A DNA stretch of 64,000 bases from Escherichia phage EC_OE_11. A program made the translations under genes and the position numbers. The notes beneath the pieces are model-generated. The model had not been told where the DNA came from. It made no database searches and was given only the letters and a program-made list of their open reading frames with translations. Every line of letters starts with the position of its first letter. The first letter of the stretch is position 1. Below, piece by piece: positions 31,537 to 47,529 of this stretch. Where the stretch lies: sequence record OQ108497.1, one strand, 5' to 3'.

Positions 31537-31787
31537 TGTTAAGTATCAAACCTAAAATGATAACAGCAGATGAAGCAGACTTTATTTTCAAATGTGGACG
31601 TGTATGGAGAGAATTCACAAAAGGGAATGAAGTGGTTGTTGTTGTCGAACACAAGATATCTATCCAGGATCTGTTTGGACAATATGTTGATGTTATTAAA
31701 TTAGGTATTGACAAGGGTTTAGTTGAGGTGTTAACATTAGATCAAGTTGAAGCAGAGCACCTCGATAAAGTGGTGGTTGAATTTTAA
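31536..31787 (+). CDS. hypothetical protein
   Basis: 83-aa ORF, coupled. Confidence 0.5.
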   Translation: MLSIKPKMITADEADFIFKCGRVWREFTKGNEVVVVVEHKISIQDLFGQYVDVIKLGIDKGLVEVLTLDQVEAEHLDKVVVEF

Positions 31788-32444: not shown

Positions 32445-33572
32445 ATGAAATACACGATTTATGGTGATATTGTAAGTGTAAATAAAGATATGGGTGTGGA
32501 ATCTAATTATCTTCCACCTGGATTCTATACTGTTAGTCGTGATCCCCTTGGCAATTATTTTTTAAGCCGTGGTAATCTAACAGGTGTACCGGATGTTCTG
32601 TATGGTGAAACAGAAAAACGAGCAAATCACGTTATCCGTACATTCCATCGCCGGAGTGCACAAGGTAAAAATACAGGTTTGCTTCTGACAGGAACTAAGG
32701 GCAGTGGTAAAACTATGTTAGCCAAGCTCATTAGTCGTGACCTTGTAGAAGAAGGTATTCCAACTATTATGGTTACTCAAGCCTACAGTGATGCTAATTT
32801 CATTGAACTTATTAGCAAGATCACCGACAAAGCAGTGATTATTTTTGACGAGTTTGATAAAGTATATGAGAAGAAACAAGATCAAGAAGCACTTCTCACT
32901 TTGTTAGATGGTACTGGCAGTGGTAATAAACTGTTTATTCTAACTAAAAACAGTGGCTTTATCTCTGAATTCTTTCTAAATCGTCCTAGTCGTGTGTTTT
33001 ATAATTTTAATTATGATAAAATCTCACTAGAAACTATGATTGACTATTTAGATAAAAACCTGGATAACAAAGCACACTTTGATAATTTCCAAAGACTTTG
33101 GGATGTAAGTTTAGAGTTGTCCTTTGATGTGATCCAAGGTATAGTAGAAGAACTTAATTTCTACCCTGATTTATCCTTTAAAGAATGCATCTCTATGATG
33201 GGCGTTTCTTTGGGTGGTGGTAATAAATGGGATATCAGTAGCGTTATTATTAATGGAAAACTTCAGAAAGTTAGCTGGGTATCTAGTTGGCATAACTTTA
33301 CACCTGCAATCTTTTTAGGTGGCTCGTGCACACTAGACGTGTACTTGTCATCTCCAAGTGATGCAGATTCTAAAGAAGCCCTTGCTAATAGCTCTTACGT
33401 GGTTTTTGATGATGAAGGCGATGCTCGAATTCCGTTGAATGCGACAAAAATGAAAGCAGACCTTATCACAGGCGGTAAAATCGTTGTGTTTAGTGATGAT
33501 CCAGAAGATTCTTTCCGTATTGTTCTGGAACCAACTATCACCAATGGTGCAACTTTGGCAAGTGTGTTTTAA
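32445..33572 (+). CDS. AAA+ ATPase (paralog 2)
   Basis: Walker A GTKGSGKT, Walker B IIFDEFDK, FILTKN; collinear with 17558..18718. Confidence 0.7.
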   Translation: MKYTIYGDIVSVNKDMGVESNYLPPGFYTVSRDPLGNYFLSRGNLTGVPDVLYGETEKRANHVIRTFHRRSAQGKNTGLLLTGTKGSGKTMLAKLISRDLVEEGIPTIMVTQAYSDANFIELISKITDKAVIIFDEFDKVYEKKQDQEALLTLLDGTGSGNKLFILTKNSGFISEFFLNRPSRVFYNFNYDKISLETMIDYLDKNLDNKAHFDNFQRLWDVSLELSFDVIQGIVEELNFYPDLSFKECISMMGVSLGGGNKWDISSVIINGKLQKVSWVSSWHNFTPAIFLGGSCTLDVYLSSPSDADSKEALANSSYVVFDDEGDARIPLNATKMKADLITGGKIVVFSDDPEDSFRIVLEPTITNGATLASVF

Positions 33573-33585
33573 GTAAGCCAGCAAA

Positions 33586-33610
33586 TAAAAACCCGCTTCG
33601 GCGGGTTTTC
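33586..33610 (+). terminator. intrinsic terminator
   Basis: AAACCCGC-ttcg-GCGGGTTTTCTTGTAT; identical copy at 60338-60361. Confidence 0.8.
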
Positions 33611-33646: not shown

Positions 33647-34819
33647 ATGGTAGCACTAAAATCATGGGAACAATATAAAGAAGAATTAATACCCCTTGCT
33701 AAAAATCACAATATTCAAATCTTGGGTTATGTTGGTGAATGGAAAGGGAACAAGACTAAACTTAAGCTATCTTGCCCTAAACATGGAGAGTGGAACACCA
33801 CGAACATTAATGATTTTAAGAAGGGACGTGGTTGTCCTATCTGTTCTGGTAAGAAGCCGTTAACATGGGAAACAGAATTGCCGATCTTGGAAGAGATAGC
33901 ACAGAAGAGGGGGTATCAGGTGTTAGGGTACGTGGGAGAATGGAAAGGGAATAAAACAAAACTTGATTTGTTGTGTCATTGTGGTAATAAATGGGATACT
34001 ACAAGTATTAACAATTTTAAACGTGGTAGCGGTTGTCCACAATGTAAGAGGGAGAGACAAACAATGTCCGACGATCAACATATTGCAGATTTCTTTTCTA
34101 CAGGGGAATTTAAGGAAGGCACTATCTTCACCAATACAGGGAAACGTAACAAGCGTGATGCAGTATGGATGGTTGAGTGTCCTGTTTGCTCCCATGATGA
34201 ATATGTTCAAGCAGGTGTTTGTGATGGTAAATTTTACTCTGCAGGACATAACCTTAAACAAGGGTATATTCCGTGTCGTTGTGGGAACTATCAGTATACA
34301 GAAGACCAGATCACCTATAGGGTAAAAAAGGAAGTAGAAGGGAAAGGGTATGTCTGGGTAGATTGGATTACCAAACCCTCTTCTATAGGTAAGTTTAAAT
34401 ATCTTTGTCTTGTGCATGGTGAGCAGATAGGGAGTGCTCGTAATTTATTAAGCCTCGGTCAAGGTTGTCCACAGTGTGCTGGTCATAATCAACAGCAATT
34501 ATATATTAATATTGTTAAAGATAATGATATTATAGTTGCTCTTAAGTTTGGCATAGCTAAAGATAGTGACAGGCGATTAAACAATCAAAATAGGCGTAAT
34601 ATGTTTTTTATGGAGCGTATTTGTTTATATGATTTTAGTACAGTGAAACAGTGTAAGGCTGCTGAAAGAGCTATAAAGAAAAAACTAAAAACTGGTATTT
34701 TAACAGCAAGAGAGTTGAAAGATGGTTATACAGAAACAGTAAGTGTTTCTGATTTGGAAAATCTTCAAAAAATTATTACACAATATGGTGGCAAGTTAGT
34801 ATACAGTAAGGAGGTGTAA
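33647..34819 (+). CDS. zinc-ribbon-repeat protein with C-terminal GIY-YIG-like (T5orf172/MUG113-type) domain
   Basis: Two about 45-aa repeats (GYVGEWKGNKTKL..C..G.W.TT.IN.FK.G.GCP.C) plus more CxxC pairs; C-terminal LYINIV...KFGIAKDSDRRL...AERAIKKKL. Confidence 0.45.
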   Translation: MVALKSWEQYKEELIPLAKNHNIQILGYVGEWKGNKTKLKLSCPKHGEWNTTNINDFKKGRGCPICSGKKPLTWETELPILEEIAQKRGYQVLGYVGEWKGNKTKLDLLCHCGNKWDTTSINNFKRGSGCPQCKRERQTMSDDQHIADFFSTGEFKEGTIFTNTGKRNKRDAVWMVECPVCSHDEYVQAGVCDGKFYSAGHNLKQGYIPCRCGNYQYTEDQITYRVKKEVEGKGYVWVDWITKPSSIGKFKYLCLVHGEQIGSARNLLSLGQGCPQCAGHNQQQLYINIVKDNDIIVALKFGIAKDSDRRLNNQNRRNMFFMERICLYDFSTVKQCKAAERAIKKKLKTGILTARELKDGYTETVSVSDLENLQKIITQYGGKLVYSKEV

Positions 34820-35371
34820 ATGCGGATTACTGATAAGTATGTGTTCTTCTTCTCGGCAAAAGATGAATTTAGCAACTGGTATCTATCATCTTTTATTGAA
34901 CCTTTAGCTCCCAAGTATAATAATTCTATTACAAGTTCTGTTGAATTTACTTGTGTGGAACAATATATGATGTGGAGAAAAGCATGTTTGTTTTATGATT
35001 ACAACATTGCATCTTCTATTTTAACCGGAGATCTAAGATATACAGGAGAAAAAGAACAGGCATATTATAAGCGACTAGGTAGATTAGTTAAAGATTACGA
35101 TGAAGCTACTTGGACTTCTTTACGGGAGAAGATTGTCAAGCGTGGTTTGTATCTTAAATACACACAAAATGAAGATCTCAAAAATAAACTTATAGCTTAC
35201 GCAGATAAGGAGTTTGTAGAGGCAAGTCCTTATGATTCTATTTATGGTATCAAAATGGGGATGTGGGATCGGGACGTGGAAAATAAGGATTGTTGGAAAG
35301 GACAAAATCTTTTAGGAAAATGGCATACAGACCTTGCTGTTTATCTAAAATCACAATCTGATATTTCCTGA
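34820..35371 (+). CDS. NADAR-family protein (YbiA-like)
   Basis: FFFSAKDEFSNW, CVEQYMMWRKA, EASPYDSIYGIK, GQNLLGKW align to YbiA motifs. Confidence 0.7.
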   Translation: MRITDKYVFFFSAKDEFSNWYLSSFIEPLAPKYNNSITSSVEFTCVEQYMMWRKACLFYDYNIASSILTGDLRYTGEKEQAYYKRLGRLVKDYDEATWTSLREKIVKRGLYLKYTQNEDLKNKLIAYADKEFVEASPYDSIYGIKMGMWDRDVENKDCWKGQNLLGKWHTDLAVYLKSQSDIS

Positions 35372-35585
35372 TATTTTGAAAATTTTTACTTTTATAAAAA
35401 GGGGTGTGGGTTTCATGTACGGAAATCCACCCTCTGAATAATATATCCAGAGTAAATATTATTCTGTACTCTGTTAATAAAGTATTTAATTTGTTTGTTG
35501 GACTATGGTATCTGATCTTTAAAAGGCATACTATCTCTTAACTACTATTTATAACAGAACAGTAAAATCATTTTTATAAAAAGGA

Positions 35586-35790
35586 CAAAATTATTTAAAG
35601 TTTTTACAGATTTTTGGATACAAATTTTGAAAATGAAAAGTTCAAGTTTGGTCAAAATTATTTAAAGTTTTTGTACGTATTTCTATCCAGATTTTGAAAA
35701 TGAAAACTTCAATTTTTTAAAAATTCCCCAGTTTATTTAAAGTTTTTTTGCCTTTTTCCGTAGAAAAATCAAAAATGAAAAGTTCAATTT
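35586..35790. repeat. 3 tandem copies of about 67-bp AT-rich unit
   Basis: Each unit has AAAATTATTTAAAGTTTTT and ATTTTGAAAATGAAAAGTTCAA. Confidence 0.7.
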
Positions 35791-35811
35791 CGTGTTTTTA
35801 TAGGTGTGCGT

Positions 35812-35925
35812 ATGATAATCATTCTCATTTGTAAATGAGAATCATTATCATTTAATTATGTAAGTGATAATCATTCTCAGTAAGAGAATGAGAATCATTA
35901 GCAAATGAGAATTTTTCTCATTTAG
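35812..35925. promoter_or_regulatory. cluster of Fur-box-like motifs (GATAATCATTCTCATT / AATGAGAATCATTATC)
   Basis: At least 5 units in both orientations resembling Fur consensus GATAATGATAATCATTATC. Confidence 0.5.
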
Positions 35926-35929
35926 AGAA

Positions 35930-36480
35930 TAACGCGCAGGGGTGGTGTTTGTCTCGCGCTCCCGTGTCCCTCGCCATACAATAAGAATAGCATAACCAAC
36001 AACAAAAGCAAGCGATTATTTTTATCTTTACATTTCTTTACAAATTTATTTTAGACGAGCTACCGGCGATCAACCTTCCAACCAGTGCCCCTGGTATGTT
36101 AGCCCCGCCTTTACGCCGTGGGGGTGGCGCTTCCTCTTCTGTATGTAAAACAGTATAAGCCCGATCCCTGGGCTTGTCAAGATTATTTTTTGTTTTCTTG
36201 CCAGGAAAGGACACCTAACCAAAAATACATATCGCCCCGCGCCCCTGGCGGGATCTTGCTTTCCCCGCCGCCACTGCAAGCCCATAAATAACCATCAGCG
36301 AACGGATCAAAATGTTCTATCTCTTCCACCTTATGATCGCCCAGGTTGAGAACGGTTTCAACCTTTAAGCCCGTTGCGCTTGCTACCTGGTGCACCGTGC
36401 CGCCTTGCCAGCCCAATGAGTGCATGAGATGTAAAGGAGTATTTGTCATGGTATCGCCCTTTCTTTGATGTGCGCCCTGG
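35930..36480. other. GC-rich compositional island inside AT-rich non-coding hub
   Basis: Visibly GC-rich versus flanks; only weak ORFs. Confidence 0.5.
36183..36449 (-). CDS. hypothetical protein (88 aa) within GC-rich island; possibly acquired
   Basis: ATG 36449 with AAAGGGCG SD-like; atypical codon composition. Confidence 0.3.
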   Translation of the reverse strand: MTNTPLHLMHSLGWQGGTVHQVASATGLKVETVLNLGDHKVEEIEHFDPFADGYLWACSGGGESKIPPGARGDMYFWLGVLSWQENKK

Positions 36481-36714
36481 TTGGCGCGGTAGAAAGATAA
36501 TAGCCGTTTCCTTTATAGATAGCAAGCAAAAAGAAATGAAAAAAAGATTAAAAAATGGTTGACGTTCCTCACCTGGTAGCGTAGTATTCATCTTGTCGAG
36601 GGGGGCAAGGCACAACGACAATAAACAATAGGCGGGTGCAATGCAGGACGGGCAAAGGTGAGGATCTCCACAATCCACCGTCACAATAACATTACTTATA
36701 AAAGGTTGATAACG

Positions 36715-36810
36715 ATGATCAAGAAAGAAAACAGCTTGACGGTTGGAACGATTAACGCTATCATTCTAGCCGTTCCATTTTGGATTGTAGTAGCGGTTGT
36801 TATTTTCTAA
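36715..36810 (+). CDS. small membrane peptide (31 aa), speculative
   Basis: ATG 36715; single hydrophobic helix; weak SD. Confidence 0.25.
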   Translation: MIKKENSLTVGTINAIILAVPFWIVVAVVIF

Positions 36811-36819
36811 AAAATATTC

Positions 36820-36878
36820 TTGACAACGTTTTTTAATCTGATAAGATGTATCACATAGGGCGGCAATAGTGCCGCTCA
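36820..36878 (+). promoter_or_regulatory. promoter + 5'-leader stem-loop cassette (PeSL-like, type B)
   Basis: TTGACA-16nt-TAAGAT then GCGGC-aatagt-GCCGC hairpin, SD, ATG 36900. Confidence 0.55.
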
Positions 36879-37172: not shown

Positions 37173-37175
37173 GGC

Positions 37176-37235
37176 TTGACACTGAAAAATAATTTAGTAA
37201 TATATACCACATAGGGCGGGAAATGGTTTCCCGCC
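37176..37235 (+). promoter_or_regulatory. promoter + stem-loop cassette (type A: GGGCGGGaaatggtttCCCGCC)
   Basis: TTGACA-16nt-TAATAT then 22-nt hairpin. Confidence 0.6.
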
Positions 37236-46610: not shown

Positions 46611-46630
46611 AATAATGATAATCATTCTTA
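46611..46630. promoter_or_regulatory. Fur-box-like motif AATAATGATAATCATTCTTA
   Basis: Second copy about 55 bp downstream. Confidence 0.45.
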
Positions 46631-47165: not shown

Positions 47166-47511
47166 TAATGTTTGGAACATTGGCTATAATATAAGCTACA
47201 TATAATAAGCTATTCAATAATAAACATCGTGAATAATGACATTGAAATGAATAATGACACTGATGATCATAATGCGCCACCTTCCAGGGGGCGCTATGTG
47301 AACACAAAGAAATCTTTCTTGTCAAGAAAAATATCACCATTATTGCGCAAAATTATTTATATCTGAATAGATGATTTTTCATACTATTGCCCCTATACAC
47401 TACCTCATTTGTTGCAATGTATCCCCCTATTTGTTGAGCCTATTCTCTTAAAAGCGCAATAAATCAGAATTATCTTGATTTTTAGTGGATTTTATAGTAT
47501 AGAAAATATGC

Positions 47512-47529
47512 AAATGATAATCATTATCA
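47512..47529. promoter_or_regulatory. Fur-box-like motif AAATGATAATCATTATCA
   Basis: Near-consensus Fur-box-like palindrome. Confidence 0.45.

Follow-up and report, generated by a model that had tools for sequence, protein, structure and literature searches.

The gene at positions 34820-35371 of Escherichia phage EC_OE_11 raises the question as to whether it encodes an intact NADAR enzyme, whether such an enzyme would protect the phage from toxins that ADP-ribosylate DNA, and whether the gene immediately upstream belongs to the same system. These questions were addressed within the window, which is the whole stretch of DNA that was analysed and comprises 64,000 nt. The encoded protein is very probably a stand-alone phage NADAR, an allele of AdfN-Bas60, that reverses the guanine ADP-ribosylation of phage DNA by DarT1.

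The phage background of the gene is well populated. Over the 4.5 kb around it, the sequence shows 98.6% identity to BASEL phage Bas62 (Escherichia phage JohannJBalmer) and 94-98% identity to dozens of relatives. Judged by its sequence, the source phage is a phi92-like E. coli myophage of the genus Justusliebigvirus, within the Stephanstirmvirinae. An exact-sequence look-up retrieved the identical protein WBF54231.1 (Escherichia phage EC_OE_11), which bears the GenBank name 'putative YbiA-like N-glycosidase' and shares a 90% cluster of 108 sequences with phi92 gp223. Homologues were found by tblastn in 716 phage records, mainly those of large myophages, a spread that agrees with the survey of Iyer et al., in which NADAR domains occur in about 27% of myoviruses (PMC9503650).

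The nearest relatives checked from outside the Stephanstirmvirinae are two proteins of 42-43% identity, both encoded on jumbo-phage-like contigs. One of them, P0111 (43% identical), is found on a 455-kb metagenomic contig (L009:155-7365) beside genes for an anti-Pycsar Apyc1-like protein and a CTP_transf_like nucleotidyltransferase, and is itself flanked by two GIY-YIG genes, which are homing endonuclease genes (HEGs). The other, P0052 (42% identical), is encoded on a 354-kb contig near genes for NAMPT/NAPRTase, a PRPP-type phosphoribosyltransferase and a nucleoside 2-deoxyribosyltransferase. Going by gene content, these two settings are apparent counter-defence or NAD islands, and would fit a counter-defence role.

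Gene structure, fold and active site

The features of the gene and its immediate surroundings are as follows.

34808..34814, + strand: Shine-Dalgarno sequence AAGGAGG, read from the sequence, within the 3' end of the upstream gene
34820..35371, + strand: adfN-type NADAR gene, predicted guanine-ADP-ribose DNA glycohydrolase (ORF, family profiles, AF2 model, near-identity to Bas60/61/62)
34958..34981, + strand: E-x6-K motif, from E47 (34958-34960) to K54 (34979-34981), by alignments with 8BAU, T4 gp30.3, YbiA and PnNADAR
35219..35236, + strand: E134 (35219-35221) to D139 (35234-35236), in the motif FVEASPYD, by alignments
35400..35435, + strand: hairpin, possible terminator or 3'-end stabiliser (RNA fold -19.2 kcal/mol, z = -1.7)

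The open reading frame begins with ATG, encodes 183 aa and includes its stop codon within 34820-35371. The AAGGAGG sequence is situated 5 nt ahead of the ATG, and codon comparison with close relatives gave 15 synonymous and 3 non-synonymous differences relative to Bas60, and 17 and 2, respectively, relative to Bas61. This excess of synonymous (15-17) over non-synonymous (2-3) differences indicates that the gene is under purifying selection. The strong ribosome-binding site and the predominance of synonymous differences thus bear out the reading of this ORF as a real gene.

The TAA stop codon of the upstream gene (34817-34819) directly abuts the ATG of the NADAR gene, an arrangement that suggests, with high probability, that the two genes are co-transcribed and translationally coupled. 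We infer that transcription of the NADAR gene starts at host-type promoters that it shares with the upstream genes, and early enough to matter, since host-type promoter-like sequences are present upstream (TTGACA-18-TAACAT at 31708-31737) and the gene has its place in a cluster of small non-structural genes on the + strand. Beyond the gene, the hairpin at 35400-35435 starts 29 nt past the stop codon and contains 14 paired bases (5 + 9, with one bulge); it has no U-tract, and its z of -1.7 lends weak support to a terminator reading.

The original prediction placed the protein in the NADAR (DUF1768) family, and the HMM searches, together with the fold, confirm this placement. Pfam NADAR PF08719 was matched over profile positions 9-154 of 163 with 126 bits (gathering score 35.1, E=2.3e-36), TIGR02464 with 109.8 bits (cut-off 73.7), and phrog_1017 with E=5e-50. 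A phmmer search of the PDB sequences returned the Phytophthora NADAR 8BAU (E=2.5e-12) as its sole match, and a PADLOC scan matched the candidate-cluster NADAR model PDC-M42C only, the DarG model remaining unmatched. The AlphaFold2 model, which was built on 44 homologues and reached a pLDDT of 96.7 and a pTM of 0.90, matches the NADAR fold, an alpha-helical core with small flanking beta hairpins, when compared with the PDB. Foldseek identified 8BAU, the P. nicotianae NADAR with ADP-ribose (TM 0.77, E=1.7e-9), and 2B3W, E. coli YbiA (TM 0.69), and beyond these two structures nothing in the PDB under E=1. The NADAR domain begins at about residue 8 of 183, and relative to relatives of 157-165 aa the Stephanstirmvirinae clade carries two insertions, at about residues 28-40 and 70-81.

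Throughout the 44-sequence alignment, S18, E47, K54, K84, G87, W98, E134 and D139 are invariant. The active-site residues S18, E47, K54, K84, E134 and D139 are all present, and they include the Ser, Glu and Lys that are conserved in the NADAR substrate channel (S18, E47 and K54) as well as the catalytic Glu (E134). As for their counterparts in characterized proteins, E47 and K54 align with E43/K50 of PnNADAR, E88/K95 of the E. coli C7 NADAR and E36/K43 of T4 AdfN, and mutagenesis shows that these counterparts matter (PMC11543638, PMC11825919). Similarly, E134 aligns with the catalytic glutamate of PnNADAR (E125) and of SCO5665 (E167), and D139 aligns with Asp172 of SCO5665 (D172), the residue roles in SCO5665 being those reported in PMC12945103.

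Anti-DarT1 activity of AdfN-Bas60, proposed mechanism and rival functions

Johannesman et al. (Nat Commun 2025) reported that the BASEL phages Bas60, Bas61 and Bas62 encode AdfN-Bas60, an anti-DarT factor NADAR (PMC11825919). This protein was equated here with bas60_0111 on the basis that bas60_0111 is the NADAR gene annotated in Bas60, and for comparison the gene annotated as NADAR was translated from each of the three phages. Compared with bas60_0111, the EC_OE_11 protein has 3 substitutions in 183 residues (N62S, A96D and S178T), none of them catalytic, and compared with the Bas61 and Bas62 proteins it has 2 in 183 each; all of these substitutions fall outside the conserved columns of the 44-sequence alignment.

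AdfN-Bas60 neutralises DarT1 in uninfected E. coli without other phage factors, and when expressed from a plasmid it brings RB69, T5 and Bas25 back to full titre on DarTG1 cells, while having no effect against the thymine-specific DarTG2 (PMC11825919). These published assays relied on ectopic (plasmid) expression of the Bas60 allele (PMC11825919), and a search of the literature for a deletion of the gene in any Justusliebigvirus came back empty. In the published phylogeny, AdfN-Bas60 groups with bacterial NADARs that are neither DarT-associated nor YbiA (PMC11825919). The underlying chemistry was described by Schuller et al. 2023 as the hydrolysis of ADP-ribose off the N2 of guanine, where it is put on by DarT1 or by ScARP/pierisin-type enzymes (PMC11543638), and the work on guanine-ADP-ribose hydrolysis was extended by Cihlova et al. 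2024.

The suggestion that the gene is a phage counter-measure against DNA ADP-ribosylating toxins of the DarT type has thus been demonstrated for a protein only 3 of 183 residues away. The function of essentially this protein is already published, in the 2025 work on a 98%-identical orthologue, and the EC_OE_11 locus adds just another allele to known anti-DarTG1 biology.

In the proposed mechanism, DarT1 of the host DarTG1 toxin-antitoxin defence would put ADP-ribose on the guanine N2 of phage DNA and thereby block its replication. The phage NADAR would then cut the guanine-ribose N-glycosidic bond, so that the DNA is returned to its unmodified state and the phage is able to replicate. Within the active site, the distal ribose and the diphosphate would be positioned by E47 and K54, and the catalytic acid would be E134, together with D139. 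The protein would in this manner act as an orphan type-IV antitoxin, one that undoes the damage without binding the toxin. The gene has no toxin partner beside it, its neighbours being a homing endonuclease gene, an AAA ATPase gene and an intergenic hub. The integrity of the gene, its family, its fold, its active-site residues and its near-identity to a tested protein were established directly; that the anti-DarT1 job is carried out in its own phage is what we infer. Phi92-like coliphages are candidates for phage therapy and would come with a ready-made enzymatic antidote to DarTG1, and knowing that the gene is present would help to foresee their host range among E. coli strains that carry DarTG1.

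DarT1 may not be the sole or main natural target of this NADAR, because the aspartate characteristic of DarG1 (D171 in the E. coli C7 enzyme, F132 here) and the N-terminal extension are both absent from its sequence. A 2026 study found that NADAR/YbiA enzymes whose residue at the E167 position is a glutamate act on guanine-linked as well as cytidine-linked ADP-ribose, in DNA and in RNA, whereas DarG1, which has Asp, and T4 AdfN, which has His, remove G-ADPr only (PMC12945103). Since the phage protein keeps this catalytic glutamate (E134), it could tentatively be read as a broader eraser than T4 AdfN, acting also on cytidine in DNA and on guanosine and cytidine in RNA. On this doubtful extension it would guard against pierisin/ScARP-like or undiscovered nucleic-acid ADP-ribosylating defences in addition to DarTG1, and the T5orf172 HEG might help to spread the gene between co-infecting phages.

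Three further functions have to be weighed against the reversal of guanine ADP-ribosylation, all of them of very low probability. Iyer, Burroughs, Anantharaman and Aravind proposed from comparative genomics that most phage NADAR and Macro domains act on soluble ADP-ribose-derived immune signals or toxins of the cADPR type (PMC9503650), in which case DNA de-ADP-ribosylation would be a side activity; the position of the jumbo-phage-contig relatives beside Apyc1, NAMPT and nucleotidyltransferase genes would suit this proposal. However, experimental support for it is absent for any NADAR, while reversal of guanine ADP-ribosylation in DNA is experimentally supported for AdfN-Bas60 (PMC11825919), and NAD-salvage genes are absent next to the EC_OE_11 gene. 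As the main function this is judged highly unlikely, though it may be an additional role. Still less probable is a metabolic role, in which the protein would be a housekeeping N-glycosidase like YbiA, serving the metabolism of phage or host by destroying reactive intermediates of the riboflavin pathway. It is the annotations that speak for such a role: TIGR02464, which is matched well above its cut-off (109.8 > 73.7 bits), is titled 'riboflavin biosynthesis intermediates N-glycosidase', the GenBank records of Bas60/61/62 and EC_OE_11 name a YbiA-like N-glycosidase, and several phage homologues are annotated as 'GTP cyclohydrolase II'. Yet TIGR02464 is a domain-level model that covers the whole NADAR fold, and the EC_OE_11 protein is only 25% identical to E. 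coli YbiA, of the riboflavin-linked YbiA/COG3236 proteins, as against 41-47% to stand-alone non-YbiA NADARs of 157-165 aa. Furthermore, AdfN-Bas60 falls outside YbiA in the published phylogeny (PMC11825919), the near-identical AdfN-Bas60 saves cells from DarT1 where E. coli YbiA fails, and there are no riboflavin genes next to the NADAR gene.

The least likely of the three is a non-enzymatic action, whereby the protein would bind ADP-ribose on a defence effector in the manner of the phage NADAR that inhibits Retron-Eco1. Carabias reportedly described in 2024 the inhibition of Retron-Eco1 by that other phage NADAR, and U56 of T5 is said to bind ADPr. The catalytic residues of the EC_OE_11 protein are, however, all intact and invariant, and binding of this kind could be an additional function that need not replace catalysis. 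The preferred reading is thus that of an enzyme which removes ADP-ribose from guanine in phage DNA.

The neighbouring homing endonuclease and the intergenic hub

The gene that precedes the NADAR gene is the following.

33647..34819, + strand: T5orf172 (GIY-YIG clan) homing-endonuclease gene, with three DNA-binding zinc-finger repeats of the CapR type, outside the NADAR mechanism (Pfam, phrog_681)

It had been described as encoding a zinc-ribbon/GIY-YIG-like protein, and this description stands: the product contains three CapR domains (E=3e-43; DUF723 and DUF4379 also match) and, at its C-terminus, a T5orf172 domain, which belongs to the GIY-YIG clan, the latter match being marginal at 21.4 bits versus a cut-off of 20. 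The protein also matches phrog_681 'endonuclease' (E=2e-86). T5orf172 homing endonucleases of the same architecture, with repeated zinc fingers of the CapR/DUF723 type at the N-terminus ahead of the nuclease domain, in which repeats are gained and lost by recombination, were described by Barth et al. 2023 (PMC10448857). From its domain composition, the neighbour is a selfish mobile gene of the T5orf172 HEG class, encoding a predicted homing endonuclease. The length of its product is 467 aa in Bas60 (L002:1148-2551), 390 aa in Bas62 and EC_OE_11, and 325 aa in Bas61 (L003:1148-2125). These size differences between near-identical phages correspond to whole CapR repeats, and the variation resembles the repeat recombination described for the HEGs of ICP1 (PMC10448857).

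A two-gene system composed of the NADAR and the zinc-ribbon/GIY-YIG protein was considered and rejected, the adjacency being coincidental: it is not conserved, and the neighbour fits the selfish HEG class. The lack of conservation follows from the differing arrangements in two other phages. In Phapecoctavirus ESCO13, two small, unrelated genes lie between the NADAR gene and the HEG homologue, which is 39% identical and has five CapR stretches. In Klebsiella phage 05F01, three genes upstream of NADAR were checked, and not one has a Pfam match (0/3). The HEG may nevertheless promote the spread of the adjacent NADAR allele.

Upstream of the pair, a strong intrinsic-terminator-like hairpin with a 9-bp stem, AAAACCCGC-TTCG-GCGGGTTTT, is present at 33588-33609, where it separates the HEG-NADAR pair from the AAA ATPase gene (32445-33572). 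Given this hairpin, expression of the pair may require read-through, or else a promoter that went unrecognised within the 37-nt gap.

Downstream, the NADAR gene was predicted to be the last before a large non-coding hub. This holds insofar as there is no large ORF in 35372-36850, but the region is not entirely non-coding, for an 88-aa ORF lies inside it. This minus-strand ORF (36183-36449) corresponds to phrog_19316 and has no Pfam match. It is 95% identical to its ESCO13 copy, whereas the adjacent NADAR and HEG products are 56% and 39% identical, respectively, and at the DNA level 35715-36608 shows 84% identity to ESCO13 versus about 71% for the flanking genes. The block at 35930-36660 has a GC content of 0.47-0.52, compared with about 0.35 around it. 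A near-consensus promoter on the minus strand, TTGACA-17-TATACT at 36180-36152, is located right past the stop codon of the 88-aa ORF and reads into 36150-35930. Searches with the hub gave no credible Rfam match and no similarity to E. coli genomes.

The hub also contains several kinds of repeated sequence. Arrays of Fur-box-like palindromes (GATAATCATTCTCATT / AATGAGAATCATTATC) are found in the hub at 35810-35925 and, beyond it, at 46611-46629 and 47510-47528, and such palindromes are also seen at L005:6070 and L006:5959. Within the 64,000-nt window, the E. coli Fur consensus was matched five times with <=3 mismatches, against an expectation of 0.03, and all five matches lie in low-coding stretches. 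In ESCO13 and in Klebsiella phage 05F01, the site 3' of the NADAR gene is kept, with flanking DNA only about 70% identical. A literature search found no link between Fur boxes and the phi92-like phage group. From their sequence, the palindromes might act as promoters that respond to iron or Fur, or might constitute a Fur sink.

Where the hub is richest in AT (GC 0.23-0.25), between 35570 and 35790, a direct repeat of about 67-79 nt occurs three times in a tandem-like arrangement; the copies are 71-73% identical, and each contains TTATTTAAAGTTTTT and GAAAATGAAAAGTTCAA. These repeats look like iterons and could belong to an origin of replication or to a regulatory array; the minimum of the GC skew falls at about 30300, at the coding-strand switch and away from the hub. 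In addition, a sigma70 promoter cassette, CTTGACA-N16-TAAGAT/TAATAT followed by ACCACATAGGGCGG, is present at 36819-36866, at 37175-37222 and further downstream, with many copies in L005, and is repeated ahead of each small + strand gene past the hub. Because these cassettes repeat, BLAST matches break into multiple pieces that resemble insertions. A 2.4-kb insertion near NADAR in relatives was accordingly rejected: the locus of phage Nernie is colinear, and the extra span consists of downstream promoter cassettes. Overall, the hub looks more unusual than the NADAR gene itself.

Comparison with known NADAR systems

The closest known system is AdfN-Bas60, which represents the same gene in the same genomic position and phage genus, with 180-181 of 183 residues shared and identical active-site residues. 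The loci are syntenic, having the same upstream HEG and the same downstream hub. The difference is confined to the alleles, that of EC_OE_11 carrying three substitutions relative to Bas60 and two relative to Bas61 and Bas62.

AdfN-T4 (gp30.3) is likewise an orphan phage NADAR with an E-x6-K motif (E36/K43 in T4) that reverses guanine ADP-ribosylation and counters DarTG1. The two proteins share only 17% identity, however, with a BLASTP E of 2.1 that is no significant match, and T4 has a histidine (...LKHS...) where EC_OE_11 has the catalytic E134 (...VEAS...). They also differ in their requirements, since AdfN-T4 needs a T-even infection context and gives no rescue from DarT1 alone, whereas AdfN-Bas60 does rescue (PMC11825919). 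The published phylogeny indicates that AdfN-Bas60 and AdfN-T4 were acquired independently (PMC11825919). Membership of the T4-type AdfN clade was rejected on the grounds of the low identity, the BLASTP result and the presence of Glu instead of His.

The DarG1 antitoxins of E. coli C7 and G. lovleyi have the same fold and, as far as AdfN-Bas60 is concerned, share hydrolysis of N2-guanine-ADP-ribose and neutralisation of the toxin. Unlike DarG1, the EC_OE_11 gene has no adjacent DarT1, and its product consists of 183 aa without an N-terminal extension, compared with 229-234 aa. Moreover, the catalytic aspartate of DarG1 (D171 in the C7 enzyme), two residues before the conserved glutamate, is replaced by Phe132, and Glu134 is present as in the general NADARs. 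The protein was therefore not assigned to the DarG1 antitoxins, for want of a DarT neighbour, of the N-terminal extension and of the Asp now occupied by F132.

The P. nicotianae NADAR 8BAU is the best structural match (TM 0.77) at 28% identity, and the general NADARs, comprising 8BAU, SCO5665 and the sigma70-linked E. coli NADAR, possess an identical active-site set of Ser/Glu/Lys/Glu/Asp. The phage clade is distinguished from them by its two insertions and by being viral, not cellular. E. coli YbiA (2B3W) shares the NADAR fold (TM 0.69) and the conserved Glu/Lys/Glu/Asp, and it removes G-ADPr in vitro without protecting cells from DarT1 (Cihlova et al. 2024). At 25% identity it stands apart from the EC_OE_11 protein, YbiA having a housekeeping role in riboflavin metabolism and belonging to a LexA-controlled operon.
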